The position numbers and the translations under genes are program-made. A stretch of DNA of 62,936 bases from an uncultured Deinococcales bacterium (GTDB lineage: Bacteria; Deinococcota; Deinococci; Deinococcales; JAAFIG01). A model generated the notes under the pieces. It worked only from the letters and a program-made list of their open reading frames with translations, made no database searches and was not told the DNA's origin. Shown piece by piece: positions 22,906 to 61,251 of the stretch. Numbering within the stretch: position 1 is the stretch's first letter; each line of letters opens with the position of its first letter. The stretch spans positions 1 to 62,936 of the forward strand of contig CAXTTL010000006.1 of the NCBI GenBank assembly GCA_964247135.1. The letters run 5' to 3'.

Positions 22906-22924
22906 GCATTACCAAGGCATTACC
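22906..22924 (-). promoter_or_regulatory. Direct-repeat box 1 (membrane pair/DOMON operon)
   Basis: GGTAATGC-CTT-GGTAATGC, 8 nt, CAAACT. Confidence 0.85.
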
Positions 22925-22946
22925 GCTTCATTTTGTTGTTCAAGAA

Positions 22947-22976
22947 AACCGCTCGGCATGAAAACTCCGAGCGGTT
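22947..22976 (-). terminator. Terminator of the cytochrome c gene
   Basis: AACCGCTCGG-N10-CCGAGCGGTT, T-rich tail on the minus strand. Confidence 0.6.
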
Positions 22977-23005
22977 GAGGCACAGTGATTGGAATGGCTG
23001 AATGC

Positions 23006-24145
23006 TTACTTCAAGGCATTGATGGTGGCGAGCAGCGCCTCCCTCGAGAAACTCGGGTTGTGAACGCCGTTGCTCTTGTCATATTTGACCATCAGGTAAT
23101 TCCAGGCGGCACGAACCACCAGATGCTCGGTCGGGAAAATCTGATGCCCGTCGGGTGCGGGAGCTTCGCGGAACTCGGAGATTAAACTGGTCAAAACCGT
23201 ACCGTCGGAAAGTTTGACGATCAATGCCATCTGACCATGCACGGTCGTGACATCCTCGAGGCTCTGGACGGTGCGACCCGCCAATAGCAAATCAGCATCC
23301 TTGTCGGTCTGTACGTCATACGATTTCACGACGCTGAGGGTCGCCGCACTGGTCTGAACCTGTTTGAGCATGGCAATCCGCAGTTGCTCGAGCAGGTAAC
23401 GCGTTGGACGGGCGACGTATTCTTTGTTCATGTCCTTGCCGTGACAAGCCTGACAGGCGGCTTGCGGCGGCTTGAAGCTGTGCGAATTTTCGGTTTCGTT
23501 GAGGCTCATGTGACAGGTGGTGCAACTGCCGTTGGTAAACTTTGCGTGCGGTGAGGTTCGATCTGTGGTGTCATTGATGAAAAAGAAATTCTTTGCCATG
23601 ATCATGTCGGTCTGCGCCGCCTCGTGCGGACCGGTGTAACGCTTTGGATCGCTGGTGTCCCACTGAACCCGACCATTGCGGGTGTTGTGACACGTCATGC
23701 ACAGTGCCCCATCACCCACCGCCGTGACGGCAAATCCAGACGGCAGCATGGGCGTTGAGTCCTTGAGGCGCAAGGCTTCGTTTTCGGTGTGACAGGTGGT
23801 GCAGGTGATCGGTTTGGCATCGGCTTTGGTCAAACCCAGTGACTTGAGGTACTCCACCGTGGCGGCTTTGCCATCAGGTCCTTTGATGTTACCCGGGTCG
23901 CCACGCAACAATTGCGGCAACCAAGCCCTAAAACCCTGATCGCTGTGACAGCGCCCACAGTGCGCGGCAGTCGCCTGACGTTGTTCAACGGTGGCTTCTG
24001 CCAGGGTTGTTTTGATGTTGTTATGGGCGCTCGCTTCCCATGCGGTTTGTTGCGGTGTGGTTTGCGAAAAAACTTTGAAAACACCACCAACACCGAACGA
24101 CACGAAAAGAGCCAGCGCCAGACCTCGTAGGAACGTGAGCTTCAT
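23006..24145 (-). CDS. Exported pentaheme cytochrome c
   Basis: Five CxxCH motifs (CGRCH, CTTCH, CMTCH, CTTCH, CQACH), extra His motifs, C-terminal DKSNGVHNP; N-terminal signal/anchor. Confidence 0.9.
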   Translation of the reverse strand: MKLTFLRGLALALFVSFGVGGVFKVFSQTTPQQTAWEASAHNNIKTTLAEATVEQRQATAAHCGRCHSDQGFRAWLPQLLRGDPGNIKGPDGKAATVEYLKSLGLTKADAKPITCTTCHTENEALRLKDSTPMLPSGFAVTAVGDGALCMTCHNTRNGRVQWDTSDPKRYTGPHEAAQTDMIMAKNFFFINDTTDRTSPHAKFTNGSCTTCHMSLNETENSHSFKPPQAACQACHGKDMNKEYVARPTRYLLEQLRIAMLKQVQTSAATLSVVKSYDVQTDKDADLLLAGRTVQSLEDVTTVHGQMALIVKLSDGTVLTSLISEFREAPAPDGHQIFPTEHLVVRAAWNYLMVKYDKSNGVHNPSFSREALLATINALK

Positions 24146-24267
24146 TTTGACCCTTTCTGGGATTTCACCTTGCCAGGCAAGAAAATTTGAAGTGAACCGT
24201 TCAGAACGGTAAAACAGCTCGAGCTTGGAGGACCTCGGATGTGAATCTCGAACGATGGTGATTCCAT
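24142..24267 (-). CDS. Candidate 41-aa upstream ORF coupled to the cytochrome gene
   Basis: GGAGGT 10 nt before ATG 24267; its TGA overlaps the cytochrome ATG (ATGA). Confidence 0.4.
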   Translation of the reverse strand: MESPSFEIHIRGPPSSSCFTVLNGSLQIFLPGKVKSQKGSK

Positions 24268-24331
24268 GCTTTCAACCACCTCCGCCTCGAGAACAAACGC
24301 CAAAATGCCCCACGAAAATCTTGCCCAGCCG

Positions 24332-24350
24332 GTATTACCAAGGCATTACC
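24332..24350 (-). promoter_or_regulatory. Direct-repeat box 2 (cytochrome c)
   Basis: GGTAATGC-CTT-GGTAATAC, 8 nt, CAAGAT. Confidence 0.85.
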
Positions 24351-24468
24351 GAACCCTCGAGCGAGCGGAACGGATTCGTTCGGATCAAACCGGCAGCCCT
24401 GAGTGAAGGTTGGGCGGTCGCCGGATTTGCGGGTTGACGTTTAAACCAAACCTCGAGCTTGGATGCCT

Positions 24469-24487
24469 CGTAATGTGCTGGTAACGC
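24469..24487 (+). promoter_or_regulatory. Direct-repeat box 3 (USP)
   Basis: CGTAATGT-GCT-GGTAACGC, 8 nt, CAGAAT. Confidence 0.8.
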
Positions 24488-24520
24488 TCAAGCCCCAGAA
24501 TTCGTGGGTGGAGGCACAAA

Positions 24521-25504
24521 ATGATCTCGAGAATCCTCATCCCGACCGATGGCACACCCTGCTCCGAACACGCCACCCACCTGGCATTCGATTTGGCAAA
24601 ACGCCTTGATGCTCGGGTGCTTTTGACGCATGTTGCCGATGAACGCGGCACCAGTCGATTCAGCGAACGGCGCGGGGTGCGTCAACGATACGGCAAAGTG
24701 ATGCTCGAGTATTGGGTGGACGAAGCCCAGCGCCAGGGTTTGCTTGCCAGTGACATGCTCGACTCGAGTCGCAATGTGATCGAATCGATTGTCAACATGG
24801 CAAGCAAAGAACATTGCGATCTGATCGTGATGGGGACGCACGGACGGGAAGGTATTCCAAGATTAATACAAGGCAGCGTCGCCGAAGGGGTCTTAAGAAA
24901 CACGCCCCTGCCTGTGATGCTGGTGCACCACACACCGCATCCGTTCGAGCCGCTGTTTCATCGGATTCTTGTCGCGGTGGACGGCGACGAAATCAGCGAC
25001 ACCGCCCTTCAACATGCGACCGAACTGGCTCAGGGACTGAAAGCAACCCTGGACGTGCTTCATGTGATCCCCGATGCGGCTGCGATTTCAAAAAGTTTTG
25101 GCGGCGCAAGCCAAGATGTGCAACGTTTTGTCAACGAAGCCGAAATTGAGAGCCATGAAATGATCGCGCACGTCTGGTCACAGATTCGCAGCAGTGGTGT
25201 CGAACCAAACCGCATTGAGGTTTTTGAAACCCACTCAAACGGCGCAAAGATTCACGAGGCGATCTTGCGTCACGCCAAGCAACGCAAGATTGACCTGATC
25301 GTGATGGGCACACACACCCGCACAGGTCTGGCTCGGTTGGTCATGGGCAGCGTTGCCGAAGGCGTGGTGCATCACTCGGGTTTTCCCGTGTTGTTGGTGC
25401 GCGGACTCGAAGCTCGAGCATCTAAATCTTTAATGCCACCCGAGGAGAGCCTGATTCCAACCCTCAAACTCGAGCCTTCGGCACGCCCTCAACTTGAGCG
25501 TTGA
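24521..25504 (+). CDS. Tandem-domain universal stress protein
   Basis: Two domains carrying ILxxxDG...DLIVMGTH...GSVAE. Confidence 0.93.
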   Translation: MISRILIPTDGTPCSEHATHLAFDLAKRLDARVLLTHVADERGTSRFSERRGVRQRYGKVMLEYWVDEAQRQGLLASDMLDSSRNVIESIVNMASKEHCDLIVMGTHGREGIPRLIQGSVAEGVLRNTPLPVMLVHHTPHPFEPLFHRILVAVDGDEISDTALQHATELAQGLKATLDVLHVIPDAAAISKSFGGASQDVQRFVNEAEIESHEMIAHVWSQIRSSGVEPNRIEVFETHSNGAKIHEAILRHAKQRKIDLIVMGTHTRTGLARLVMGSVAEGVVHHSGFPVLLVRGLEARASKSLMPPEESLIPTLKLEPSARPQLER

Positions 25505-25607
25505 GCAAGTCATTGCAACCTCGAGCGCTACGACTTGGGATTTATAAACCTTGAGGGTCAGTTTTTTGATCTTGGGTATCAAGCATTCACTGACGACCCT
25601 TCGCGGT

Positions 25608-25626
25608 GGTAACGCTACGGTAATGC
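25608..25626 (+). promoter_or_regulatory. Direct-repeat box 4 (88-aa ORF)
   Basis: GGTAACGC-TAC-GGTAATGC, 8 nt, CAAGCT. Confidence 0.85.
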
Positions 25627-25726
25627 TCGAGGTTCAAGCTGGGTTCTGAAGAGGAAACATTTTTACGCGGTGGCATTGGCTCATGAATCATCACGCAAGC
25701 CTCAGACTGTTAGGAAGGATTAAATC

Positions 25727-25993
25727 ATGATTCAAAACACCCTCATCCCAATCGCCCATCGTTTGCAATGCCGCTGGGTTCCTGGAACGCTGGACAAGGT
25801 TCGGATCAGTGATCCTGCGGTTCATCAGGACATGATTCTCGAGCTGCGAGATTTTTTGGAACTGGCGAACCGCGATGCGGTCAACGCCCTGCACATGAAG
25901 GGTTTGGCACAACTCGAGTGTGATCAAAAGCAATGGAGTGTGTTGTCGGCGCTGGCAGTTTCGCCCTGGAACGATTCGTCCATCTATCTCTAA
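25727..25993 (+). CDS. 88-aa hypothetical protein
   Basis: GGAAGGA SD; preceded by its own boxed promoter. Confidence 0.7.
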   Translation: MIQNTLIPIAHRLQCRWVPGTLDKVRISDPAVHQDMILELRDFLELANRDAVNALHMKGLAQLECDQKQWSVLSALAVSPWNDSSIYL

Positions 25994-26067
25994 AAGCCTG
26001 TTGATGAAGGATTGTGCGGAAGAGGCAAATAGCGATTGGCTTCAAATCGTTTGCTCACTGGCTATTT

Positions 26068-26212
26068 GCTTCTTGACCATAAAATGCACCTTCTTGATCC
26101 TAAACATGCTTGATCCTAAACATGCACCTTCGGGCAGGATCGCTAACGGGCATGGTCGCTCACGGGCGGGATCGCTTCTTGATCCTAAACATGCACCTTC
26201 GGGCATGGTCGC
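26068..26212. repeat. Complex intergenic repeat cluster related to the 21.1 and 61.4 kb repeats
   Basis: Copies of CTTGATCCTAAACATGCACCTTCGGGC (reverse complement GCCCGAAGGTGC...CAAG) plus 16-bp CGGGC...TCGCT sub-units. Confidence 0.85.
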
Positions 26213-26265
26213 CAACCGCTCAAAACGCTGCAAACCCCCAATATTTTCTCGCACAACAGACTTTC

Positions 26266-27612
26266 TCAATGCAGGGCGGCATTCGCGGCAATTTGCAAGG
26301 GGTCCCAGACGCTCGAGAATGGTGGCGCATACGCCAGGTTCAGGTTGACCAAATCCTCGAGCGTGCCGGCGCGGTGCAGCAGCGAAGCCACGACATCGAT
26401 GCGTTTGACCGCATCGCCGTGCCCAACAATTTGTGCGCCCAACAGTTTTTCGCCTTTTGTTTCAAAGACCAGCCGCACCATCATCGGACGCTTGTCTGGG
26501 TAATAACCCGCATGATCGCTGGTGTTAATACTGATGGCTTTCGCGTCCAACCCAAGTTGAAAGGCATCGAGTTCGGATAAACCCGTCAAGCCCACCGCCA
26601 CGTCAAAAACCTTGGAAATTGCCGTGCCGACCACCCCAGCAAAACCCGAGTGACCACCGGCAATGTTTGTTCCAGCGACGCGCCCTTGATGGTTTGCGGT
26701 GTTGCCGAGCGGAATGTAGGCGTGCCGTCCACTGACCAGGTGATGAACTTCGGTGACGTCGCCTGCGGCGTAAACGCCTGGCAAATTGGTCTCGAGTTGC
26801 TGGTTGACCGCGACGCTGCCAAAGGGGGTCAGTTCGACGCCAAAACTGGCTGCCAAACCCGAGTTTGGGCGCACGCCAACCGCCAGCAAGACCAGATCGG
26901 CTTCGAGTTCACCGTGCGAGGTTAATACGTGTTCGACCCTGCCATTTCCTGTAAAGCCCTTGACCTGTTCGGAGACCATCACCTCGACGCCGTGACGCTT
27001 GACTTCCGCCAGGGTCAAGGCGGCGGTGTCTGGGTCAACATTGCCCAGCAACCTGGGCAGTTGTTCGATGATCGTGACCTGCAAACCACGTTTTTGAAAG
27101 GCTTCAGCCATTTCCAGACCAATGTAACCCCCGCCGACGATCACGGCTTTGGGGTTGCTCGAGCGGTTGAAGGCGCTCAAAATCGCTTTTTGAATGGCTT
27201 CGCCGTCGGTGATGTTTCGCAGCGTAAAGATATTCTCGAGTTCAACCCCAGCAATCTGTGGTCGCAATGCCGAGGCGCCGGTGGCGATCAGGAGTTTGTC
27301 AAAAGAGGCTTTAAAAGTTTCACCCTCCAGATGATTTCGCACCTCGAGCACACGGTTTGGATAATCCACAGCGATGACCTCGTGTTGGGTCAAGGCTTGA
27401 ATCCCAGCTTGGGCAAAATCTTGTGGGGTGCGGGCGATCAGCTTGTGAAAATTGCTGATGTCACCACCGATCACATACGGCAAGCCGCAAGGGGCAAAAC
27501 TTATATGGTTCGAGCGTTCAAACAAGGTAATCTCGAGGTCTGGGTTGACCCGTTTGGCTTTGGCGGCAGCGCTTGTCCCGCCTGCCACACCGCCGATCAC
27601 AATCAATTTCAT
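26266..27612 (-). CDS. CoA-disulfide reductase / NADH oxidase-family flavoprotein
   Basis: IGGVAGG, SFAPCGLPY (redox Cys), GGGYIGLEMAE, YAAGD, LAYAPPF; GGAGG SD before ATG 27612. Confidence 0.9.
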   Translation of the reverse strand: MKLIVIGGVAGGTSAAAKAKRVNPDLEITLFERSNHISFAPCGLPYVIGGDISNFHKLIARTPQDFAQAGIQALTQHEVIAVDYPNRVLEVRNHLEGETFKASFDKLLIATGASALRPQIAGVELENIFTLRNITDGEAIQKAILSAFNRSSNPKAVIVGGGYIGLEMAEAFQKRGLQVTIIEQLPRLLGNVDPDTAALTLAEVKRHGVEVMVSEQVKGFTGNGRVEHVLTSHGELEADLVLLAVGVRPNSGLAASFGVELTPFGSVAVNQQLETNLPGVYAAGDVTEVHHLVSGRHAYIPLGNTANHQGRVAGTNIAGGHSGFAGVVGTAISKVFDVAVGLTGLSELDAFQLGLDAKAISINTSDHAGYYPDKRPMMVRLVFETKGEKLLGAQIVGHGDAVKRIDVVASLLHRAGTLEDLVNLNLAYAPPFSSVWDPLQIAANAALH

Positions 27613-27646
27613 GGTGTTAACCTCCAAGGTGCAGCATTCAACCGTC

Positions 27647-27665
27647 CAATTACCAAGGCGTTACG
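27647..27665 (-). promoter_or_regulatory. Direct-repeat box 5 (CoA-disulfide reductase-like gene)
   Basis: CGTAACGC-CTT-GGTAATTG, 8 nt, AATGCT. Confidence 0.8.
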
Positions 27666-27700: not shown

Positions 27701-27719
27701 GGTAATGCTTTGGTAATCC
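27701..27719 (+). promoter_or_regulatory. Direct-repeat box 6 (USP, possibly with sufU)
   Basis: GGTAATGC-TTT-GGTAATCC, 8 nt, TAAAGT. Confidence 0.85.
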
Positions 27720-27756
27720 CTTAAACCTAAAGTTTGTGACGAAACAGGAGGATGTG

Positions 27757-28629
27757 ATGTTCAAACGAATTTTGATTCCGATCAACCAAGAGCGCCTCAG
27801 CGAACGCGCCGCCAAGATGGGTTTGGAGTTCGCCAAGTTGCTGGGTGCTGCCGTGGTTTTCACCTATGCCCTGACCGAGAAAGTCCCCAGCGAATTTGGT
27901 CATGAGGTCATCAGACCCTGGAAGGAACGCGCACTCGAGCTTGGACTTCACTGCGAATCGCGGCTGGCAGACGCTTACACGATGAACATCGGCGATGCCA
28001 TCGCGTTTGAAGCCGGCAGCGCCAATTGCGACCTGATCGTGATGGGCACCCACGCCAGGGAGGGCTTGAACCGGTTGCTGATGGGCAGCGTCGCCGAGCG
28101 CGTCTCGAGGGTTGCCAAAACTCCAGTGCTACTCTTGCAAGGTGAGGAGGGCAAACCGCCGGCTGTCATGTTCAAACGGATTCTGGTGCCCATCGACGGC
28201 AGCGAACCCTCGGTCTTGGCGCTGCAACAAGCCAAAGAGCTGGCGCTCAAGCTGGGGTCCGAAATTCATGTGACGTATGTCGTGCCAGATGTTCCGTTAC
28301 CAATAGGCGACCCGATTGGCGGTTACTCGGCGTTTGATTACACCAGCCTGGCAGCCGCACTCGAGATGACTGGCAAGCAAACGCTTGAGCAGGCAGCGGG
28401 TATCCTGCAACCACTCGTGGCAAAAGTTCATCTGCATCATGCCCACGGCAACAAGGTTCAGGCTTTGATTCTCGAGACTGCCAAAGAGCAGAACGTTGAT
28501 TTGATCGTCATGGGAACGCACGGTTACGGCGGTTTGAACCTCTTGTTGTTGGGCAGTGTGGCGCAAGCCGTCTCGCACCATTCGAGCGTGCCAGTCTTGC
28601 TGGTTCGTAGCCTTGGAAAAACCGTTTAG
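27757..28629 (+). CDS. Tandem-domain universal stress protein
   Basis: MFKRILxP twice, DLIVMGTH...GSVA twice; AGGAGG SD. Confidence 0.93.
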   Translation: MFKRILIPINQERLSERAAKMGLEFAKLLGAAVVFTYALTEKVPSEFGHEVIRPWKERALELGLHCESRLADAYTMNIGDAIAFEAGSANCDLIVMGTHAREGLNRLLMGSVAERVSRVAKTPVLLLQGEEGKPPAVMFKRILVPIDGSEPSVLALQQAKELALKLGSEIHVTYVVPDVPLPIGDPIGGYSAFDYTSLAAALEMTGKQTLEQAAGILQPLVAKVHLHHAHGNKVQALILETAKEQNVDLIVMGTHGYGGLNLLLLGSVAQAVSHHSSVPVLLVRSLGKTV

Positions 28630-28681
28630 GATTTGCCGCAAAACATACCCTTTCGCCAGCCAAAACGACTAGACTTTGGAC

Positions 28682-29125
28682 ATGGCTTTTGAAGAGATTT
28701 ACCGCGAAATTGTCCTCGAGCATTCCCGCAAACCACGCAACAAAGGCGTGCTCGAGGGGGCAACCTTGAAGCAAAAGGGGGTCAATGCCTCCTGCGGTGA
28801 CGAGATCGAATTGCAGTTGTTGCTTGAGGGCGATGTGATCTCTCAAGCCAGATTTACGGGCGTCGGTTGTGCCATCTCGCAAGCCAGCGCCTCGTTGATG
28901 ACCCTGGCGCTCGAGGGGCGCAAGGTTGCGGAGGCGCTCGCGTTGGCGCACGATTTCAGCGCCATGATTCGCGGTGAAACACCCAAAGAAACGTTGGGCG
29001 ATCTGGCAGCCTTTCAAGGCGTCTCGAAACTTCACGCTCGGGTCAAGTGCGCGACCCTGCCCTGGCAGACCCTGGAGGTGGCGCTGAAGCGCTCAGGCGA
29101 AGAAGTTGCGGCAACGCTCGAGTGA
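28682..29125 (+). CDS. sufU: SufU (NifU-like) Fe-S assembly/sulfur transfer protein
   Basis: YREIVLEH, NASCGD, GCAISQASAS, RVKCA. Confidence 0.92.
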   Translation: MAFEEIYREIVLEHSRKPRNKGVLEGATLKQKGVNASCGDEIELQLLLEGDVISQARFTGVGCAISQASASLMTLALEGRKVAEALALAHDFSAMIRGETPKETLGDLAAFQGVSKLHARVKCATLPWQTLEVALKRSGEEVAATLE

Positions 29126-30337
29126 GGCAATCAGGACATCCACATCTTGGGTGGTGTTGTAAATCCCAAATGAGGCTCGAGCCGTGGATTGCAGCCCGAG
29201 CGCCCGCATGGCGGGTTGGGCGCAGTGATGACCCGCCCGAACACACACGCCGTCTTCATCCAAGAAACTGGCGACATCGTGCGGATGAACACCGCTGATG
29301 TTAAAGGCAATCACCCCCGCACGGTCTTCACCCCGAGCACCATACGTCACCACGCCCTCGAGTTGGTCGAAGCGCTCGAGGGCGTACCTGGTCAAAGCCT
29401 GCTCGTGCGCTTGAACCTGCTCGAGTCCAAGGTTTAACAGGTAATCGGCAGCCGCCGCCAGACCTATCGCGTCGGCAATCGCGGGCGTGCCAGCCTCGAA
29501 TTTGTTGGGTGGCTCGGCATAACTCGAGCGATCAGGAAAAACTTCTAAAATCATTTCGCCGCCACCCAAAAACGGCGGCATGGCTTTTAATAACTCGAGC
29601 CGCCCCCACAAGACGCCAATGCCCGTCGGTCCGAGCATCTTATGACCAGAGAACGCGTAAAAATCGGCGCCCAGTTCTTGCACGTTGACGTTTGTGTGCG
29701 GCGCACCCTGAGCGCCATCGATCAGGCACAACGCAGCCGCCCGATGCGCCATTTGAATGATTTGTTTGATCGGATGAATGGTGCCGAGTGCGTTTGAAAT
29801 GTGCGCCACCGCGACCATCTTGACGCGTCCAGATTTGAGGAGATCGCTATAATGCCCCAAATCGAGCCGACCTTCGGGCGTGATCCGCACGGCTTTGACC
29901 GTTGCGCCGCGCAAGTTCGCCACCAAATGCCAGGGCACAAGGTTGGAATGGTGCTCGAGTTCGGTGACAATGATTTCATCGCCCGCCTGAAGGTTTGCCA
30001 AACCCCACGAGTACGCCACCAGGTTGATCGCCTCGGTGGTGTTGCGCGTGAAAATCACCTCCTCGAGATGCGGCGCGTGAATCAATTTTTGCAGGGTTTG
30101 ACGGGCTGCCTCGTACAAATCGGTGGCTTCGCTCGAGAGCGTGTAAACCCCACGGTGAACATTCGCGCCGTTGTTGCGGTAATAATCGTTCATCGCCTCG
30201 ATCATGACTCGCGGTTTTAAACTGGTCGCGGTGGAATCCAGGTAGACCAGACGCTTGCCGCCCATGACCCGCTCGAGCGTCGGAAAATCGGTTTTAAGCG
30301 CTTCAAAATCTCGAGCGGTTTTTAAGGTTGCGTTCAT
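29093..30337 (-). CDS. sufS: SufS-type cysteine desulfurase
   Basis: YLDSTAT, NVHRG, FSGHKMLGPTGIG, RAGHHCAQP. Confidence 0.93.
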   Translation of the reverse strand: MNATLKTARDFEALKTDFPTLERVMGGKRLVYLDSTATSLKPRVMIEAMNDYYRNNGANVHRGVYTLSSEATDLYEAARQTLQKLIHAPHLEEVIFTRNTTEAINLVAYSWGLANLQAGDEIIVTELEHHSNLVPWHLVANLRGATVKAVRITPEGRLDLGHYSDLLKSGRVKMVAVAHISNALGTIHPIKQIIQMAHRAAALCLIDGAQGAPHTNVNVQELGADFYAFSGHKMLGPTGIGVLWGRLELLKAMPPFLGGGEMILEVFPDRSSYAEPPNKFEAGTPAIADAIGLAAAADYLLNLGLEQVQAHEQALTRYALERFDQLEGVVTYGARGEDRAGVIAFNISGVHPHDVASFLDEDGVCVRAGHHCAQPAMRALGLQSTARASFGIYNTTQDVDVLIASLERCRNFFA

Positions 30338-30357
30338 GGTACTTCCCATCTTAGACC

Positions 30358-31365
30358 TTAAACTCGAGCCGTAACCCCATGCCAAGAATCCAAAACCTTC
30401 AAATAATTGGCGCGTTCATAGGCGCTCGGGTCGGTCAAATGCCGATGGCTGAGGCTGCCGATGCACGACTCGAGATTTTGGTATTCGTGAGCCTCGAGTC
30501 AGGCTTGGGTTTCGCCCACCATCTGCGAGAGGCGTTTGATGCCGTGCTGTAAAAATTCGCTCGCCACGAAGCTGACTTTCGCGCCGCTCATCAAGCTTTT
30601 TAAGACATCTTGGTGCGTGTGAACCCCGCCCGTGATTGCCAGATCGAGCGGCACGCGCCCATGAAGCATTGCCACCCAACGAAGCCGCAAACGCAGTTCC
30701 TCCGAGGTGCTCAAATGCAGTACGGGCACTGCCTCAAGTCGCTCGAGGTCAATGTCTGGCTGGTAAAAGCGGTTGAACAAGACCAGCGCATCCGCCCCAG
30801 CCGAGGAAAGCTGCATGGCAAGATTGGGCAGGGCGCTGTAAAACGGCGAGCGTTTGACGGCGAGCGGAATGGACACGCTGCCGCGCACCTCGCGCACCAT
30901 CTCGAGCAGCCGGTCTTCAATGTCTTTGCCGCTCAGGTTGATATCGCCTGGCAGGGTGTAGACGTTTAACTCGAGCGCATCCGCACCAGCCTGGTCGATC
31001 AGTTTGGCGTGTTCGATCCAGCCGCCCGTGGTGACGCCGTTCAGGCTGGCAACGATTGGAATTCGCGTGGCGCGTTTGGCGGCGGCAACCAGCTCGAGGT
31101 AGGCATCCGGCGAGATGTTGTACTGCTGCAAATCTGGCAGGTACGAGAGCGCCTCTGGGAAGGATTCCGAACCGTGGTTCAAGTAAAAATCGAGCGCCTG
31201 ACCCTCGAGGCTGATTTGCTCCTCGAACAGGGAGTACATCACCACCGCGCTCGCACCCGCATCCTCGAGTTGCACGATGGCGTCCAAATTTTTTGAAAGT
31301 GGTGAGGCGGAAGGCACGATTGGATGCTCGAGTTTCAAGCCGAGGTAACTGGTGCTGAGGTTCAT
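30358..31365 (-). pseudogene. Dihydroorotate dehydrogenase-like protein (PFOR partner) with an in-frame TGA at 30499-30501
   Basis: [18 protein letters not shown]; frame continues past TGA as LEAHEY...GSLS...DPSAYERANYLKVL to TAA at 30358. Confidence 0.85.
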
Positions 31366-31376
31366 ATAACGTCCTT

Positions 31377-34300
31377 TCAATCGTCTGCCGAGATCGCAGT
31401 TTCATGCGGGTGCGTGACCAATGCCAGCCGCTCGAGTTCTTGCCAGCGGACTTGCACCGCTTTTTGGGCTTCAAACAAGAACACCTCGGCGGCTTCGGGG
31501 TTGCTTTGCATCAAGACCTTGAAACGCATTTCGTTCTGACGGTAATCGCGCAATGGAATGCTGGGGGCTTTGCTGTCGAGCTGCATGGGTTTCTCGAGGC
31601 GCGGGTCAAAACGGTACAGCGGATAGTGACCACTGAGGACCGCCAGTTTTTGCTGGTTCATGCCCTTGGTCATGTCAATGCCGTGCGCGATGCAATGGCT
31701 GTACGCCACAATAATTGACACGCCAGGGTAAGACTCGGCTTCCTGAAAGGCTTTGACGGTTTGCGCGTCATTGCCGCCCATCGCAATTTGGGCAACATAG
31801 ACGCTGCCGTATTCGATTGCCAGTTGCGCCAGGTTTTTGCGCGGTTGCGCCTTGCCGCCCGAGGCAAATTTTGCCACCGCACCGAGCGGCGTGCTCTTTG
31901 AGGCTTGACCGCCCGTGTTGGAATAGACTTCGGTGTCCAGCACCAAAATATTGACGTTCGCGCCGCTCGCCAGCACGTGATCCAAGCCGCCGTAACCGAT
32001 GTCATACGCCCAACCGTCGCCGCCGACAATCCAGACGCTTTTTTGGGTCAGCGCATCCGCCAGGCTCTGCAAATCTTGCACTTCGGCTCCGTGCGAGGTG
32101 TCAAGTTTCACGGTCTCGAGTTTGGCTTTGAGCATGTCCACTCGAGCACGCTGGCATTCGATGCCTTCAAAGGAATCCTGATTGGCAGTTAAAAGTTCGT
32201 CCACCAATTGGGTGCCAATTTGATTGCGCAAGCGACCCAGCAAGTCTCTGGCGTACCTGCCCTGCTGATCGAGCGTGAACCGCATTCCCAACCCGTACTC
32301 GGCGTTGTCTTCAAACAGCGAATTGCTCCAGGCAGGACCGCGCCCGCGTTTGTTGAGCGACCAGGGCGTGGTCGGCAAATTCCCGCCGTAAATGCTCGAG
32401 CAACCCGTGGCGTTGGCAATCACGGCACGGTCACCAAACAGTTGCGAGAGCAATTTGAGGTACGGCGTTTCGCCACAACCCGCGCACGCCCCAGAAAACT
32501 CGAACAGCGGCTCGAGCAGTTGGACGTTTTTGACGTTGTTGAAATGCAGGGGGTTAAGGGTGCTTGGCTGGCGTTGCTCGAGCAACTCTGGCAGGCTCAA
32601 AAAGAAATCCCAGTTCTGGCGTTCGGTCTCGAGCAGCGGTTGGACGCCAGCCATGTTGATGGCTTTGCGCGAGGCGTTGCTCTTGTCTTTGGCGGGGCAG
32701 GCTTCGACGCACAGTTGACAACCCGTGCAATCCTCGGTGGAGACTTGAAGCGTGTACTTGCGGTTCGGGAATTCTTTCCACATCGCGGCGGCGCTCTTGA
32801 AGTTTACGGGCGCATTCTCGAGCAGTGCAGGTTCGTACACCTTGGCGCGAATCACGGCATGGGGGCAGACCAGCACACACTTGCCGCACTGAATACAGAG
32901 GTCAGATTCCCAGACGGGGACCTCATCGGCGATGCAGCGCTTCTCAAAACGCGCCGAACCGCTCGGGTAGGTGCCGTCAATCGGCATGGCGCTGACCGGC
33001 AAAAGATCGCCGCGTCCCGCGATCATCTCACCCAGCACATGCGTCACAAACAAAGGCGCTCCGCTCGAGACGCTGGGCAGCAGTTGTTTGAGGCTCGAGG
33101 TTTGCGCTGGAATGACCACCTCGAATAAGTTCGCCAAGGCGCTGTCCACGGCGGCATGGTTTTTGCTGACCACCGCCGTGCCGCGCTTGCCATACGTTTT
33201 CTCAATTGACTTTTTGATCTGCAAAATGGCTTGTTCTTTGGACAGCACGTTCGAGAGCGCAAAAAAACAGGTTTGCATGATCGTGTTGACTCGGTTTCCC
33301 ATGCCCGTCTCGAGCGCCACCTTGTCGCCGTCAATCGTAAAAACCTTCAATTGTTTCTCGAGGATGGCTTGTTGCACCGGCAATGGCAGTTCGTCCCACA
33401 GGGCTTCGGGCGCAAAACGGCTGTTCAAGAGCAACGTGCCCCCAGCTTGCGCGACTTGCAGCACATCAATCCGCTCGAGAAAACCCCACTGGTGCACTGC
33501 CACGAAATTGGCGTGTTCGATCAAATACGGCGCGTGAATCTCTTGCGACCCAAAACGCAAATGCGAGACGGTTCTCGAGCCAGATTTTTTCGAGTCGTAG
33601 ACAAAATAACCCTGCGCGAAAAGCTCGGTCTGTTCGCCGATGATCTTGACGGAATTCTTGTTCGCGCCGACCGTGCCGTCGCTGCCCAAACCGTAAAACA
33701 CGGCACGCACCTGATCGCTTGGCTCGAGGTTGAACGCCGTGTCCACCTCGAGCGAGGTGTGGCTGACATCATCGTTGATGCCGATGGTGAAATGGTTTTT
33801 GGGATTTGTTTTTTTCAGTTCGTCAAAGACCGCTTTCGCCATTGCTGGCGTAAATTCTTTGCTCGAGAGTCCGTACCTGCCGCCAATGACTTGGGGCATG
33901 GTATTGAAATTTCGCATTCCCTCCATGACCGCCGTGACGACATCCTGATAGAGCGGCTCGCCAGCCCCGCCTGGTTCTTTGGTGCGGTCCAGCACCGCAA
34001 TCTGCTGCACGGTTGGCGGCAGTGCGGCAACAAGATGCTGCACCGAAAAAGGTCTGAACAACCGCACCCGCACCACACCAACCTTCTCCCCTCGAGCTTG
34101 CAGTGCTTTCACGGTTTCCTCGAGCGTCTCCCCCGCCGAACCCATCACCACGACCACACGTTCGGCGTCGGGCGCACCAGCATAATCGAACAGGTGATAA
34201 TGCCGCCCAGTCAAGACTGCCAGGCTTTCCATCGCTTTTTGCACCATGTCAGGCAGCGCCGCGTAAAACGGGTTGACGGTTTCTCGGGCTTGAAAGTACA

Positions 34301-34973
34301 CGTCTGGATTTTGCGCCGTGCCCCGAATCATCGGACGGTCCGGCGTTAAGCCCCTGGCGCGGTGCTGACGCACCGAATGATCGGAGAGCATCGTCCGAAT
34401 GTCAGAATCCTCGAGCGGTTGTATCTTGTTGATCTCGTGGGTGGTGCGAAAACCATCCAGGATGTGCATGAACGGCACCCGAGCCTCGAGCGTCGCGGCG
34501 TGCGCCACCAGTGCCAGGTCGTGCGCCTCTTGGACGCTGCCGCCGAACAACATGCCCCAACCCGTTGACCTGGCTGCCATGACATCGCTGTGATCGCCAA
34601 AAATGCTCAAGCCCTGCGCGGCGAGGCTGCGGGCGGCAATGTGAAAGACCGTCGCGGTCAACTCGCCCGCAATTTTGTACATGTTGGGAATCATCAACAG
34701 CAAGCCCTGGCTGGCGGTAAAGGTGGTGCAGAGCGAACCCGTTTGCAGAGCGCCGTGCAAGGCGCCAGCCGCGCCGCCCTCGGACTGCATTTCGGCAACC
34801 ATCGGCACGCTGTCCCACAAGTTTGTCTTGCCCTCACTCGCCCATTGGTCCGCCAGTTCACCCATGCCGCTCGAGGGGGTGATTGGGTAAATGGCGATGA
34901 CTTCGCTGGCTTTAAAAGCAATCAAAGCCGTGGCTTCGCTGCCGTCCATCGTGACGCGCCCTCGTTGTTTCAT
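31377..34973 (-). CDS. nifJ: Pyruvate:ferredoxin/flavodoxin oxidoreductase
   Basis: [18 protein letters not shown], two ferredoxin CxxCxxC motifs, [18 protein letters not shown]. Confidence 0.96.
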
Positions 34974-35041
34974 ACGCAACCTCCGAGACTCGAGGGGCTT
35001 GAATAAAACCTCGAGCTTGATGGTTGGAGTATGCAGGGCGT

Positions 35042-35060
35042 GGATTACGAGGGCATTACC
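35042..35060 (-). promoter_or_regulatory. Direct-repeat box 7 (nifJ operon)
   Basis: GGTAATGC-CCT-CGTAATCC, 8 nt, CATACT. Confidence 0.85.
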
Positions 35061-35082: not shown

Positions 35083-35571
35083 TCAAGCCAAGACGGTCTT
35101 TGGGACTTTCCCCGTCAGGCTCAAAAACCAGCACATGAAACGATGAGCACCGTCCGAAGTTTCCCCAAACATCAAAGGACAGCCGCCGTCAATCACCAGC
35201 ACACCGTGCTCACGACCATAGTTTGTTGCCACCTCGGAGACGCTGCCCGCATCAAGGGCGCGGTGCATCCAGACCATCGGGATACCCAGTTTCACCACCT
35301 CTTGCATGGTCGTCTCGGTATGCTCGGGACGCGTGCCGATCACGACTGCCTCGACCCCACCAGGGATTGCCTCGAGGTTCGGATAACATGTCAAGCCTGC
35401 AATCTCGGTGGCATTTGGGTTCACCACAAAAACCTCGTAACCTCGTTCCTGAAGGCGTTGCGCGACAGTATTGCTGCCATGACCCGAGGGTTTGCGCGAG
35501 ACGCCAGTGACCGCGATTCGGCGGCAAGCCAGAAATCGCTCGGCAGCCTCCGCAACTTTTATACTTGTCAT
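35083..35571 (-). CDS. CoA-binding protein (YccU-like)
   Basis: IAVTGVSR, VFVVNP, CYPNL, VWM, GGCP. Confidence 0.88.
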   Translation of the reverse strand: MTSIKVAEAAERFLACRRIAVTGVSRKPSGHGSNTVAQRLQERGYEVFVVNPNATEIAGLTCYPNLEAIPGGVEAVVIGTRPEHTETTMQEVVKLGIPMVWMHRALDAGSVSEVATNYGREHGVLVIDGGCPLMFGETSDGAHRFMCWFLSLTGKVPKTVLA

Positions 35572-35687: not shown

Positions 35688-35745
35688 CCAGTTCTGCCAC
35701 AGCCCAGTTCTGCCACAACCCAGTTCTGCCACAACCCAATCTGCC
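35688..35745. repeat. 16-bp tandem repeat x3 plus a partial copy in the 5' leader of the CoA-binding gene
   Basis: CCAGTTCTGCCACA(G/A)C at 35688, 35704, 35720. Confidence 0.9.
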
Positions 35746-35751
35746 TCGCAG

Positions 35752-35770
35752 CCATTACGGTGTCGTCACC
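35752..35770 (-). promoter_or_regulatory. Direct-repeat box 8 (CoA-binding gene), degenerate
   Basis: GGTGACGA-CAC-CGTAATGG, 8 nt, CAGATT. Confidence 0.6.
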
Positions 35771-35785: not shown

Positions 35786-36229
35786 TCAAGACGGCTTTAA
35801 GGCTTGTTTCCATTTGGAGACAAAGCCGTGCGGCATCTGCAAACGAACCGGAATGATCTGCACTGGAATGCTCGAGCTTGCCGCGACAGCTTGCGCCACC
35901 GAACCCAAGCGAAGTCGTTCAATGCCCTCACGTCCGTGCGTGCCCATCACGATCAAATCTGCTTTTTCGGCTTGTGCCACCTCGAGAATCACGTTTGCAA
36001 CCGATTTGTCATTGGCAACAACCATACGAATACCTGGCATCATCCGTGCGCTGCCGGCGAGTTCGTTCAGCCAGGATTGTTCTGACCCGAGATCGCTGTC
36101 GGGTTGTTCTGATTGAACGTGCAGCAAGGTCACGCGAGAACCCAACCACCTCGAGAGGTCAAAGGCGTATTTGCTTGCAACTTGGCTGCACAAATCATTT
36201 TGAACTGGCACAAGAATGTGTTGATACAT
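35786..36229 (-). CDS. Universal stress protein
   Basis: MYQHILVP, ADLIVMGTHGR, LGSVAQAV. Confidence 0.9.
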   Translation of the reverse strand: MYQHILVPVQNDLCSQVASKYAFDLSRWLGSRVTLLHVQSEQPDSDLGSEQSWLNELAGSARMMPGIRMVVANDKSVANVILEVAQAEKADLIVMGTHGREGIERLRLGSVAQAVAASSSIPVQIIPVRLQMPHGFVSKWKQALKPS

Positions 36230-36276
36230 AATCACCCCCGAAGTTGGATTTCCATCTGAATCATTTTGATGCAGAC

Positions 36277-36295
36277 CCGTTACCGTGCCATTACG
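36277..36295 (-). promoter_or_regulatory. Direct-repeat box 9 (USP)
   Basis: CGTAATGG-CAC-GGTAACGG, 8 nt, CAAAAT. Confidence 0.8.
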
Positions 36296-36437: not shown

Positions 36438-36908
36438 TCAAACTGGCTTGGGTTTTGGTCCCTCGAGCAGCGCACAAACAACAAAACCGAGCAGCATCAA
36501 GCTCGAGATCACGCACCAAAAACACCAGGCATGAATCACGAATGCCTCGAGAAACGTAAAATACGCGTAAAAGGGCAAACCGATCATGCCAGCAAATCGC
36601 AGCGAGCCAAGCATTTGAAAACCAAACAAGACATTCGAGAACACGCCGTACAACGAAAGTGCGAACAAGCCAGAAAAGTAAGCGAAACCAAAACCCGCCA
36701 CCGGCAGCCCAACCCATTTTGAATACGGGCTGGCTTGCACGACATCGCAACCAGAAATTGGACAGACCAAACTCGAGCGTCCAAGGTCGTAGCGCAAAAT
36801 GTAAAACGCGACCAGCATTCCCAAGAGCGCGAACACGCTGCCGGTCATGCGCCAGACCATGCTTTGCTGGTTGGTGGCTCGAGGCTCGGGGTTTGAAGCC
36901 CCAGACAT
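36438..36908 (-). CDS. VKOR-family membrane disulfide-forming protein
   Basis: CPISGC, SPYS, HAWCFWC; ATG overlaps the DsbA stop (TAATG). Confidence 0.9.
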   Translation of the reverse strand: MSGASNPEPRATNQQSMVWRMTGSVFALLGMLVAFYILRYDLGRSSLVCPISGCDVVQASPYSKWVGLPVAGFGFAYFSGLFALSLYGVFSNVLFGFQMLGSLRFAGMIGLPFYAYFTFLEAFVIHAWCFWCVISSLMLLGFVVCALLEGPKPKPV

Positions 36909-37639: not shown

Positions 37640-37734
37640 TGACCTTTCACGGGTGTTAACCACCCTGAAACAAGCGCCGTCTTAAATGCTGGGTTATGGC
37701 TGGCACAATCGACGAAACAGAGTCTGAAGGTCAG

Positions 37735-37753
37735 GCATTACAAGGGTGTTACG
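37735..37753 (-). promoter_or_regulatory. Direct-repeat box 10 (DsbA-VKOR operon)
   Basis: CGTAACAC-CCT-TGTAATGC, 8 nt, CAGACT. Confidence 0.75.
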
Positions 37754-56447: not shown

Positions 56448-56448
56448 G

Positions 56449-56727: not shown

Positions 56728-56735
56728 AAATTTAT

Positions 56736-56753
56736 TGTTGTATATGTACAACA
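56736..56753. promoter_or_regulatory. Palindromic operator, probably for XRE autoregulation
   Basis: TGTTGTA-TATG-TACAACA just upstream of the inferred XRE start. Confidence 0.7.
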
Positions 56754-57005
56754 TTTTGTCAAGATATTCTCGATGGCGGATTGGCACAAAGGCAAGCCGC
56801 AAACAGCACGGTTTTCCGACAGCAACGGCGGATTCTGGCAAACTCGAGGAACGCTCCTTCAAGACCCTCAATGCTGCAAGCAAGGCTCGAGCATCAATTC
56901 TCGACAATTGAGAATTTGAGGATTCTCGAGCTATTCTGAACTTCGTGTTACAATCATTGCGAGCCGTGAAACACAGTACAATCCTTTTTTAAGAGGTGAT
57001 CTTTT

Positions 57006-58178: not shown

Positions 58179-58385
58179 ATTTCCAAATCAAACGCTCGAG
58201 GTTGCCATAAACCTCGAGCGTTTTGTTTTCAGTGTACAAAAGATTGCCCGATCAAATTCGGCTCGGATTTGCGCCAATCGCGGGCTGCAAATACCTTCAG
58301 CCGAGCATCAGAATAAGGTAAGGAACGGCATAGTTTGGGCATCAATGATGGATGCCAAGGCAAACTTGTGCCATAAGGAGCAACC

Positions 58386-59159: not shown

Positions 59160-59191
59160 TACGAACTGAACCGGATTGCTCGAGCCTAACT

Positions 59192-60109
59192 TCAAGCCAC
59201 GAAATGATTCGCTTTCAAATCACTGATGGTCATCTCGAGCTTTTGTTGTTCGTTCTCTGAAAGCGGCAGGTGCAAGGTTTCTTCAACGCCGTGCTTACCC
59301 ACAAGTCGCGGCAACGAGAACGCCACCTCACTTGGTTTGGTCACGGCACTGAGGGCAAAGACATTTCGGGTGTTGTGCAAAATTGCGTCGCTCAGGTCGG
59401 CGAGCAATGCACCAATACCATAAGAGGTCGCGCCTTTGCCTTCGATCACGCGTTGGTTTGAACGCACGACCTCATCAGTCAGGCTTTGGTAATCAAAGTT
59501 GTTCCAACTTAAATTTCTGGTTTTCAAAAACGTCTCGAGTGGCATTCCTGCCACCGTAACACTCGACCAGATCACGACACCAATGTTGCCCTCTTCGCCA
59601 ATCACGTAACCGTGAACGTTTTCAAAGTTAACCTCGAGTTTGCGGGCGATGGCGGCACGAAGTTGCAGGGTTTGCAGGGCTGTGCCAACGCCGATCACTC
59701 GGGTTTTGGCGTCCACTGGAACAAGTTGTGTGCTCAGCATGGTCAGGGCATCGACCGGTTGCGACGCGACCAGCAGCACGGCTTTGGGCGCAACGGTCAA
59801 GACTTCTGGAATCAGTTTGCGGTACAGTTCAGAATTTTCCTCGAGCAGCAATTTACGATCACGACCATTTTTTTGGCGCGAACCTGGGGTCAGGATGATC
59901 AGGCTGGCATCTTTTAAATCGCTGGTGTTGCCGCTGCTCACCTTGGTGGCGCGTTTGGTCAGGGCGGCGTCGCGCAGGTCTGCGGCTTGCGCCTCGGCTT
60001 TGGCTTGGTTCACATCGACCAAAATCACTTCGTCACCGATGCCACGTAACACAATGGCGTTGGCTGCGGCTGAACCAATTGCACCTGCGCCAATAATTCC
60101 AATTTTCAT
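59192..60109 (-). CDS. L-lactate dehydrogenase homologue with substituted catalytic residues
   Basis: GAGAIG, LVD, KGATSYGIG present; ASQPVD, TALQTLQ and IGEEG replace NPVD, LDTAR and GEHG. Confidence 0.85.
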   Translation of the reverse strand: MKIGIIGAGAIGSAAANAIVLRGIGDEVILVDVNQAKAEAQAADLRDAALTKRATKVSSGNTSDLKDASLIILTPGSRQKNGRDRKLLLEENSELYRKLIPEVLTVAPKAVLLVASQPVDALTMLSTQLVPVDAKTRVIGVGTALQTLQLRAAIARKLEVNFENVHGYVIGEEGNIGVVIWSSVTVAGMPLETFLKTRNLSWNNFDYQSLTDEVVRSNQRVIEGKGATSYGIGALLADLSDAILHNTRNVFALSAVTKPSEVAFSLPRLVGKHGVEETLHLPLSENEQQKLEMTISDLKANHFVA

Positions 60110-60137
60110 GATCTTCTCCTCCACCTCGAGCACGCTG

Positions 60138-60626
60138 TTATTTGGCTAAATTTGCTCGTGCGCGTTTGTCTTGCTGGTGCGCCCGTTGCCCAGCCCGAAC
60201 CAGCATGACTGGCGGACGGGCAAGATGCGCCACGCGTTCTGCCACGCTGCCGAGCAGCACCTTGTCAAAACCTTGCCGTCCGTGGGTGCCCATCACGATC
60301 AGGTCAACATTTTCTTCGTGGGCAACCCTGGTGATGACATCTGCCACACGTTCGTTGTGTGCCTCGAGTTTTAAGGGTTTGGCATGGCTATAGCCCAAAG
60401 TTTGAATGGCATCGTTTAAAATTCCGTTCGAGTCCCTGGCTTGTTCGTGTTGTACTGCTTTTTCGGTGCTTGTGATGCCTGGTTTGATGTTTGGGTAGAA
60501 CAAATCTGGAATCACGTGCAAGACCAGCAACAACGATCCCATCGGGCGTGCCAGATCAACGGCGACTTGCAAGGCTTCATTGGAGAGTTCGCTGCCATCG
60601 GTGGTGACGAGTACACGGTCAAACAT
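60138..60626 (-). CDS. Universal stress protein
   Basis: VLVTTDGS, DLIVMGTHGR, LGSVAERV. Confidence 0.92.
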   Translation of the reverse strand: MFDRVLVTTDGSELSNEALQVAVDLARPMGSLLLVLHVIPDLFYPNIKPGITSTEKAVQHEQARDSNGILNDAIQTLGYSHAKPLKLEAHNERVADVITRVAHEENVDLIVMGTHGRQGFDKVLLGSVAERVAHLARPPVMLVRAGQRAHQQDKRARANLAK

Positions 60627-61194
60627 GGGTTGTTCCTCCCTCGGGTTTTGCGGTTTGAGTTTTGTCACTGTGCTTGACGTGTTCAGCTTTGTCACTGCGC
60701 TTGGCGTGTTCAGCTTCGTCAGGACGCTTGGCGTGTTCAGCTTCGCCGAGATGCCAGCGCGGGTCGGTGTCTTTGCGCCTGGAGATCATCACGGGAATGC
60801 TCGAGAGTCGCGCGACGCGTTCGGCAACGCTGCCGAGCAAACTGTAATCAAAACCGGTGCGTCCGTGCGTGCCAATCAGTAAATAATCAAAATCCTCGCT
60901 TTCGGCATAGGCAACAATTTCTTCTGCCACATGCTCACCCTCGAGCAATTTGGAATCGACCGAAATTTCCCAACCCGTTTCGCCAATTTGCGCCCAACGC
61001 TGCAAGAGTTCTTGGGTTTCGGTTTTTTGATGCACAAAATGCTGCCAAGCCCAATCACTGGGATTGTTTGGTCTAAGCACAACACTGGTCAGCACCACTC
61101 GAGCACCCATACGACGCGCCATTGCAAATGCAGTACACGCGGCGTTTTCGCTGCAAGGTGTGCCGTCCACCGCCACCAAAATTTTCTTTAACAT
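60619..61194 (-). CDS. Universal stress protein with a repetitive C-terminal tail
   Basis: ILVAVDG, GTHGR, LGSVAERV; (E/K)AEH(A/V)K(R/H)(P/S)D x3. Confidence 0.9.
   Translation of the reverse strand: MLKKILVAVDGTPCSENAACTAFAMARRMGARVVLTSVVLRPNNPSDWAWQHFVHQKTETQELLQRWAQIGETGWEISVDSKLLEGEHVAEEIVAYAESEDFDYLLIGTHGRTGFDYSLLGSVAERVARLSSIPVMISRRKDTDPRWHLGEAEHAKRPDEAEHAKRSDKAEHVKHSDKTQTAKPEGGTTHV
60661..60745. repeat. 27-bp coding tandem repeat x3
   Basis: TT(T/C)GTCA...GCTTG(A/G)CGTGTTCAGC at 60661, 60688, 60715. Confidence 0.9.
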
Positions 61195-61232
61195 CCAAGA
61201 CCTCCTTTAACTGATCTCAGAATGCTTGGACT

Positions 61233-61251
61233 GCATTACCAGGGCATTACG
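61233..61251 (-). promoter_or_regulatory. Direct-repeat box 11 (usp-usp-ldh-like operon)
   Basis: CGTAATGC-CCT-GGTAATGC, 8 nt, CATTCT. Confidence 0.85.

Follow-up and report, generated by a model that had tools for sequence, protein, structure and literature searches.

Which protein reads a direct-repeat element that stands, at one fixed distance from a putative -10 hexamer, in front of stress and central-metabolism genes of an uncultured Deinococcales bacterium, and what kind of programme do these genes form? The question is raised by a 62,936-nt stretch of DNA (contig CAXTTL010000006.1 of assembly GCA_964247135.1; hereafter "the window", or C6), which belongs to a 5.09-Mb, 386-contig, 84%-complete genome (G000). 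An earlier inspection of these letters (hereafter "the sequence-only reading") had proposed that 11 copies of this element, or box, define an undescribed hypoxia or redox regulon, switched on by one response regulator resembling the OmpR/PhoB-family activators; its placement of the DNA in Deinococcota is correct. From the sequence comparisons gathered below, we consider it likely that the box is the predicted binding site of P0001, a small activator of the SARP family (Streptomyces antibiotic regulatory proteins) encoded outside the window, which would drive a stress and fermentation regulon. About 21 promoters of G000, 11 of them within the window, are predicted to belong to it.

A direct-repeat box over the -35 position

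The 11 boxes of the sequence-only reading are all present, and each points at a downstream gene, as had been described. Oriented in this way they share the consensus SGTAAYGC-N3-GGTAAYGC; the exact pattern GTAAY-N6-GTAAY fits 10 of the 11, the upstream half of the box at 35752 reading GTGAC. The boxes at 24469, 25608 and 27701 are found on the forward strand, and the remaining eight on the reverse strand. A hexamer of the form xAxxxT (mostly cAnAcT) follows exactly 8 nt past the box at all 11 sites. With this hexamer placed at -12 to -7, the box covers positions -39 to -21, in agreement with the proposal that an activator would there replace the -35 element; no recognisable -35 exists, and the six nucleotides standing 17 bp before the -10 are approximately ATGCnT. 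The boxes had also been said to be intergenic without exception. By a crude map of open reading frames (ORFs) this is so for 10 of them, and the box at 36277 falls within the longest ORF. It is most likely intergenic too, because a later in-frame ATG (36229), downstream of the box, is preceded by a ribosome-binding site (GGGGGTGA), and because the universal stress protein (USP) domain begins only at residue 38 of the long ORF.

A 19-bp position weight matrix was built from the 11 window sites and scanned over the whole genome, as the sequence-only reading had advised. Sites of at least 20 bits number 17, versus 1, 0, 1, 1 and 0 in five first-order Markov simulations, and those of at least 16 bits number 36, versus 2-9 in the simulated genomes. 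Fourteen of the 17 are intergenic, with about 90% of the genome covered by ORFs in these crude calls, and 15 carry xAxxxT at +8, the background frequency of which is 0.062. Seven sites of this class lie outside the training window and are independent of training; an intergenic position and the hexamer were each seen for five of these. All 21 curated sites have the hexamer at +8, and each of the other offsets between 0 and 20 shows it in 0-3 of them, the lower-scoring sites having been picked by the +8 hexamer itself, so that 15/17 is the unbiased figure. Outside the columns of box and hexamer the information content is about zero, also upstream of the box, where no third repeat was found. The box is not a dispersed repeat element, since the columns beyond it and its hexamer are almost free of information.

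This arrangement has been described for another family of regulators. In a published study (PMC10936776), SARP promoters are defined by direct repeats with a spacing of 11 or 22 bp, of which the 3' one is situated 8 bp from the -10; the afs box is centred at -29.5 over a poor -35, and a side-by-side SARP dimer gives region 4 of the sigma factor an alternative docking point. Repeats with an 11-bp period, the last of them 8 bp from the -10, were found in 11/11 window sites and in 15/17 genome sites of at least 20 bits. The promoter geometry itself is the SARP rule as published there, and hence not new.

P0001, a candidate SARP-family activator, and its distribution

P0001 (G000:C76:6960-7793, +; 277 aa) lies divergent from a USP gene (6287-6739, -), and the intergenic region between both genes holds two back-to-back boxes, one of 24.7 bits toward the USP and another of 11.8 bits, with the hexamer AAAACT, toward P0001. 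Residues 110-239 match the bacterial transcriptional activator domain (BTAD, PF03704) with 50.7 bits versus a cut-off of 22.1, and the best relative by sequence among solved structures is AfsR (E 1.9e-5, residues 36-240). A structural model was built on 23 orthologs (pLDDT 89, pTM 0.80). Its six best Foldseek matches in the PDB (TM scores of 0.71-0.78 over about 250 columns) are to AfsR, as the SARP domain seen within transcription initiation complexes, and to EmbR. The winged helix is recognised by fold, that is, by the strands and helices modelled at residues 4-96 and by the whole-length Foldseek matches. No Response_reg match was found in P0001 even at E ≤ 10, and the protein opens directly with the winged helix. 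The residues N62, R63, R65, V66, R70 and R72 of the recognition-helix region are invariant in the 23 orthologs (39-95% identity), which fits the conserved GTAAYGC half-site.

The modelled fold and domain plan of P0001 resemble those of the small Streptomyces SARPs (ActII-ORF4, RedD, DnrI) and of the SARP domain of AfsR (PDB 8hvr, 8k60), where an OmpR-type winged helix is followed by a BTAD, and its 277 aa fit the "small" SARP class; the box promoters in turn resemble SARP promoters in period, in distance to the -10, in a centre near -30 and in their poor -35. On the other hand, P0001 is only about 22% identical to AfsR, its half-site differs from those reported for actinomycete SARPs in the sources consulted, its predicted targets are scattered over the genome among stress and central-metabolism genes, unlike the antibiotic clusters of SARPs, and six subfamily-specific cysteines set it apart from the small SARPs and AfsR. 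The usual description of a SARP (actinobacterial host, secondary-metabolite clusters) does not apply to a Deinococcales protein with USP, CBS, pyruvate:ferredoxin oxidoreductase (PFOR), lactate dehydrogenase (LDH) and similar genes as predicted targets. Because this mismatch concerns habit and not structure, P0001 was filed as a divergent member of the family on the basis of its modelled fold and domain plan. In a 2024 review (PMC10972967), SARPs are considered "exclusively found in actinobacteria", whereas P0001 is found in Deinococcota.

By analogy with the AfsR structures, each of the two repeats would take up one of two adjacent protomers of P0001, SARP dimers being formed on DNA. Centred near -30, they would replace the missing -35 contact and recruit RNA polymerase. 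P0001 would also activate its own gene, since the boxes flanking it suggest a positive feedback. It is the only regulator gene with adjoining boxes in G000: a box within 3 kb was found for 1/29 BTAD genes (P0001) and for 0/24 OmpR-type (PF00486) genes. A truncated paralog, 50% identical, is cut off by a contig end (C359:1-618, -; locus L003); it retains C166, C171 and C199, and a boxed tandem-USP gene is situated about 1 kb away.

Sixty-one genomes of the order were compared, taking E ≤ 1e-50 as the limit for orthologs and counting matches to a strict box pattern and to a reversed control pattern. Orthologs of P0001 are present in its own genus (95% identity), in other genera of its family (56-74%), in Deinococcus (40-58%; including D. 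pimensis, D. navajonensis, D. hohokamensis, D. oregonensis and D. psychrotolerans) and also in Calidithermus, with generic database names only; the copy of genome G005, seen by profile search, is interrupted by a stop codon. At least two strict boxes are found in 20/23 ortholog-bearing genomes, which hold 154 matches in total versus 5 for the reversed control, and in 0/38 genomes without ortholog, 11 of which have exactly one match. Three genera (g5, g7 and g13) each show this contrast internally, and it is seen again when genera of family f1 are compared. G010 has 35 strict boxes, and several relatives have 2-3 paralogs of P0001. At the loci themselves, a box of at least 16 bits lies within 1.5 kb at 20/23 ortholog loci (L010-L032), often as a divergent pair, and 0/6 loci of distant BTAD homologs (L033-L038) have one even at 12 bits or more. 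Box positions are kept before orthologous genes in genomes of 53-68% GC.

Several individual cases were also recorded. In genus g9 (family f5), five of seven genomes (G022, G026, G038, G046 and G050) have exactly one strict match and no ortholog. G030 and G016, which have no ortholog and five loose-pattern matches each, are exceptions in appearance only, as their matches belong to other motifs (GTAACC...GTAACC, GTAACA...GTAACA) or are non-consensus, with 0 strict matches; a profile search found no P0001 ortholog in G030. No proper box was found near a plasmid homolog of D. ficus (41.5% identical), and the D. ficus clade may differ in this respect. Two further repeats were observed in related genomes: nine copies of GTAATCATCATGTAATAACGCC at contig ends of G014, which are probably insertion-sequence termini, and three copies of GTAACGTCCGTGTAACGTTTCAAAACGAGTTT, about 1.4 kb apart, at G009:C12:39859-42665.

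The genes behind the boxes are partly shared. In five Deinococcus genomes, 16/23 box sites precede genes for CBS (7), USP (5), DoxX (3) or DUF6544 (1) proteins, and at the other seven the downstream gene codes for an SDR, for a beta-CASP or baeRF protein, or is an unknown one. On a D. psychrotolerans plasmid (RefSeq), the regulator is divergent from a USP gene, and next to it stand, in a row, genes for USP, CBS, USP, DoxX and phosphoketolase; boxes of 26.0 bits are found before CBS, of 16.8 before USP and of 26.2 before an operon for cytochrome c and a cytochrome oxidase, its annotation being cbb3-type. The ATG of this CBS gene lies 7 nt after the hexamer, a leaderless layout, and leaderless mRNAs are common in Deinococcus (PMC4007540). 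In another genus of the family (G009), boxes precede genes for LDH, phosphoenolpyruvate carboxykinase (PEPCK) with a permease, DsbA, a cysteine-desulfurase-like protein, USPs, DUF6544 and the regulator. Judged from these sequences, conservation extends to Deinococcus for a core of USP, CBS-domain, DoxX and DUF6544 genes. The uncultured Deinococcales family of the window adds PFOR, LDH, GTP-PEPCK with an Asp-Al_Ex permease, DsbA/VKOR and a cysteine-desulfurase-like gene, and G000 further adds phosphoketolase, an Acg-family oxidoreductase, a CoA-disulfide-reductase-like (CoADR-like) flavoprotein and a multiheme cytochrome.

Other explanations of the box

The box might instead be bound by a two-component response regulator of OmpR/PhoB type encoded elsewhere in the genome, whose sensor kinase would supply a low-oxygen signal. 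Direct repeats with an 11-bp period lying over the -35 are typical of PhoB/OmpR boxes; the Pho box replaces the -35, as the present one would, and the DNA-binding domain involved is a winged helix of the same fold class. G000 has 24 OmpR-type genes, and the genome is 84% complete, so that a further regulator of this type could be unassembled. None of the 24 lies on C6, as the sequence-only reading had noted for the window, nor on C76 or C98, and the OmpR-family regulator with the box at its own promoter, for which it had advised to look, was not found, as none of them has one within 3 kb. The abundance of the box follows the SARP-like gene over the 61 genomes, the box adjoins that gene in 20/23 loci, and the exact 8-bp gap to the -10 is the SARP rule stated in PMC10936776. 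P0001 also differs from PhoB/OmpR in having a BTAD and no receiver domain. We regard this explanation as unlikely. What survives of the earlier proposal is the winged-helix type of DNA-binding domain, not the class of two-component response regulators with a PAS/GAF kinase; a single regulator for the whole set is likewise plausible, but the candidate has no receiver domain.

Another BTAD protein could be the ligand of the box, either a SARP with a receiver domain (347-395 aa) or an AfsR-like ATPase of about 1000 aa. G000 encodes 29 BTAD proteins, and the only SARP-type protein of Deinococcus discussed in the literature that was found is precisely of the former kind: Deide_19260 of Deinococcus deserti (COG3947), a SARP-type DNA-binding protein like P0001, combines a CheY-like receiver (REC), unlike P0001, with the SARP part, and is described as conserved in Deinococcus and with unknown targets (PMC3564903). 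Homologs of this length class (352-395 aa) occur in G013, G016 and G018, all of them without a strict box. Furthermore, the distant BTAD loci are free of boxes and P0001 is the sole BTAD gene of the 29 with a box nearby, and this possibility is therefore held to be improbable.

Still within the realm of specific regulation, the box could serve as an operator through which a repressor or dual regulator blocks the promoters, and a protein sitting at -39 to -21 would indeed also occlude RNA polymerase. The promoters have no recognisable -35 and a weak -10, as is found at activator-dependent promoters, and SARPs are described as activators in both PMC10936776 and PMC10972967; repression is accordingly given little credit. 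Finally, G000 is rich in short repeats such as CTCGAG, but the idea that the boxes are a chance pattern or remnants of mobile or repetitive elements without regulatory role can practically be discarded in view of 17 sites versus 0-1 expected, the fixed distance to the hexamer, flanks without shared similarity and positions kept before orthologous genes at 53-68% GC.

Several points weigh against P0001 as the activator. The Pho box, also of 11-bp period and about 10 bp from the -10 versus 8 bp here, comes so near that the spacing taken by itself would also suit an OmpR/PhoB regulator. The match of P0001 to Trans_reg_C in Pfam (E 0.0067, 16.9 bits) is below the cut-off of 26.2, the winged helix resting on the fold; the box directly before its gene is weak; and G000 has those 29 BTAD genes, with 2-3 paralogs of P0001 in many members of the family. 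In the comparison, related genomes are non-independent samples, two of them (G008 and G052) have an ortholog and zero matches to the strict pattern, 3/23 ortholog loci are without box, and the nearest boxes of D. navajonensis, D. hohokamensis and D. oregonensis lie 1-3 kb from the gene and not at its promoter. As for the programme, the Acg gene was not found after the boxed DoxX in three Deinococcus loci, so the extended gene set is lineage-specific, and the low-oxygen signal was derived from gene names only.

The regulon, its possible signal and its significance

The predicted box promoters of G000 are collected in Table 1. The gene content listed by the sequence-only reading for the window (five USPs, PFOR, a CoADR-like flavoprotein, a multiheme cytochrome, DsbA/VKOR and LDH) was seen in full, and genome-wide eight USP genes stand behind seven boxes.

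Table 1. Predicted box promoters in G000. Spans cover box, gap and hexamer in window positions; for sites outside the window, the contig and the downstream genes are given.
Site	Strand	Box	Gap	Hexamer	Score (bits)	Target
22892..22924	-	GGTAATGCCTTGGTAATGC	8 nt	CAAACT	30.0	22426-22863 (-)
24318..24350	-	GGTAATGCCTTGGTAATAC	8 nt	CAAGAT	27.6	23006-24145 (-), multiheme c-type cytochrome
24469..24501	+	CGTAATGTGCTGGTAACGC	8 nt	CAGAAT	22.2	24521-25504 (+), tandem USP
25608..25640	+	GGTAACGCTACGGTAATGC	8 nt	CAAGCT	25.5	25727-25993 (+)
27633..27665	-	CGTAACGCCTTGGTAATTG	8 nt	AATGCT	25.1	26266-27627 (-), likely ATG 27612
27701..27733	+	GGTAATGCTTTGGTAATCC	8 nt	TAAAGT	26.6	27736-28629 (+), tandem USP, then NifU_N 28676-29125
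35028..35060	-	GGTAATGCCCTCGTAATCC	8 nt	CATACT	26.3	31377-34979 (-), PFOR
35738..35770	-	GGTGACGACACCGTAATGG	8 nt	CAGATT	18.3 (weakest)	35083-35571 (-), CoA_binding_2 protein
36263..36295	-	CGTAATGGCACGGTAACGG	8 nt	CAAAAT	21.7	35786-36229 (-), USP, ATG 36229
37721..37753	-	CGTAACACCCTTGTAATGC	8 nt	CAGACT	23.2	36908-37663 (-), DsbA-like thioredoxin-fold, then VKOR
61219..61251	-	CGTAATGCCCTGGTAATGC	8 nt	CATTCT	29.6	60619-61194, USP; 60138-60695, USP ORF; 59192-60133, L-LDH-like; all (-)
C76						GTP-PEPCK + Asp-Al_Ex permease; CBS-pair protein + tandem USP; a USP; the regulator itself
C98						DoxX, phosphoketolase, Acg-family FMN oxidoreductase; LiaF-like protein; DUF6544
C359						tandem USP
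C88, C53						two uncertain sites

Two of the window targets matched no family: the 145-aa product of 22426-22863, with no Pfam or NCBIfam hit, looks like a 4-helix membrane protein, and no family was found for the 88-aa ORF at 25727-25993, which has a ribosome-binding site. The product of 26266-27627 is a CoADR-like or NADH-oxidase-like flavoprotein, its 463 bits against TIGR03385 being under the cut-off of 578.8, and that of 31377-34979 is a PFOR (TIGR02176, 1730 bits), its gene being followed on that strand by one for a DHODH-like protein (30499-31380) and by one of class-V aminotransferase or cysteine-desulfurase-like type (29093-30385). The VKOR ORF after the DsbA-like gene spans 36438-37163. 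Regarding their arrangement, the boxes at 24469 and 24332 form a divergent pair, those at 27701 and 27647 lie back-to-back and 54 bp apart, and the hexamer of the multiheme cytochrome gene is separated from the start codon by 173 nt.

Other repeats were recorded around these promoters. Three 16-nt tandem units (GGGTTGTGGCAGAACT; about 35690-35735, -) are found in the leader of the CoA-binding gene, past its box at 35752, and tandem units of about 27 nt (CTTGATCCTAAACATGCACCTTCGGGC...) occupy window positions 26040-26230, in the interval that separates the 88-aa ORF from the end of the CoADR-like gene. CTCGAG, a palindrome, abounds throughout the genome, also in the spacers of box promoters (e.g., window 24360-24470, 25625 and 35000). 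Elsewhere in the genome, 3-4 tandem 11-bp units (GGTAACGCCGT) at C98:9544-9585 (L002), upstream of an AHSA1-like gene and without a -10 hexamer at +8, could be a multi-repeat site or a decoy. At C341:3244 (+), just past a BTAD gene of about 1000 aa, GGTCACGTTTTGGTCACGC is followed after 8 nt by CAAAAT, and may be the box of a different SARP because the geometry is the same but the half-site differs. A different repeat, GTAACC-N5-GTAACC and then TAACCT, precedes an operon with two Rieske genes and those of an OmpR-type regulator and a HAMP kinase (C278:2603, -; L004); repeats like it (GTAACCCAGCCGTAACCGCC, GTAACTGCTCCGTAACCGCC) are seen again in genera g5 and g13, both with and without the SARP gene, and it is probably a separate OmpR-type system.

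From its gene content, with fermentative and low-potential enzymes, an oxidase operon, USPs, CBS and Acg, we infer that the regulon is a low-oxygen, energy-limitation or dormancy programme. The sequence-only reading had compared it with the DosR regulon, and the likeness is even closer than proposed, given the CBS-pair protein and the Acg-family FMN oxidoreductase of C98 (NF047509, 282.5 bits, cut-off 199): like the regulon of DosR/DevR in Mycobacterium tuberculosis (and that of OsdR in Streptomyces), it unites numerous USPs with a CBS-pair protein, with an oxidoreductase of the Acg family and with enzymes of redox or fermentative type. The CBS protein Rv2626c is a member of the DosR regulon, as are Acg, Rv3127 and Rv3131. 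DosR itself is a response regulator of NarL/LuxR type that works with the kinases DosS and DosT and binds a palindromic box, unlike the direct repeat and the one-component SARP candidate considered here; the resemblance is functional, not by family. Six USPs are counted in the DosR regulon in PMC2914252.

A possible means of sensing is offered by the cysteines of P0001. Among 121 homologs, C166 is present in 109, C171 in 120, C199 in 121, C246 in 118, C258 in 115 and C266 in 109, and four aligned positions in the 21 other BTAD proteins of G000 hold cysteine in 0, 0, 2 and 0 cases. The first three are located at the ends of BTAD helices (modelled at 141-167, 171-184 and 190-203), beside the invariant H193, and the last three in a flexible tail of low model confidence. 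Speculatively, these six subfamily-specific residues would allow the direct sensing of redox state, a metal or an Fe-S cofactor. A more ambitious proposal, which we put forward tentatively and regard as rather doubtful, is that throughout Deinococcota a dormancy or low-oxygen regulon, analogous and not homologous to that of DosR, is governed by a one-component SARP with a cysteine switch. The cysteines would gate this activator either by binding an Fe-S or metal centre that is labile to oxygen or redox changes, or by forming disulfides. If this were true, it would be the first SARP regulon outside actinobacteria and secondary metabolism, and the first SARP with a built-in redox sensor.

What differs from the SARPs described is the phylum, the predicted stress and central-metabolism targets, the half-site sequence and the cysteine signature, whereas the fold, the domain plan and the promoter rule are known. 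The sequence-only reading held motif and regulon to be undescribed, and except for the promoter geometry this stands as far as the searches reached: in those combining SARP or BTAD with Deinococcus, USP, hypoxia or oxygen limitation, no description of such a regulon was found (supplements being outside the scope). The "SARP" of PMC1274311 was set aside as an unrelated eukaryotic domain.

The combination of USP, CBS and Acg genes known from the mycobacterial dormancy regulon recurs here under an unrelated regulator, which suggests that this gene set is a functional unit wired independently by different lineages. The prediction is directly testable in cultivable carriers such as D. pimensis DSM 21231, D. 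psychrotolerans S14-83, D. hohokamensis and others, and, if it is true, Deinococcus, a model of stress tolerance, would gain a testable regulon with a defined DNA motif. Work on SARPs has concerned their switching of antibiotic clusters in actinomycetes; in the present case their promoter logic seems to govern, in a different phylum, a programme of stress and fermentation genes spread over the chromosome, which, if true, would widen the supposed role of the SARP family.

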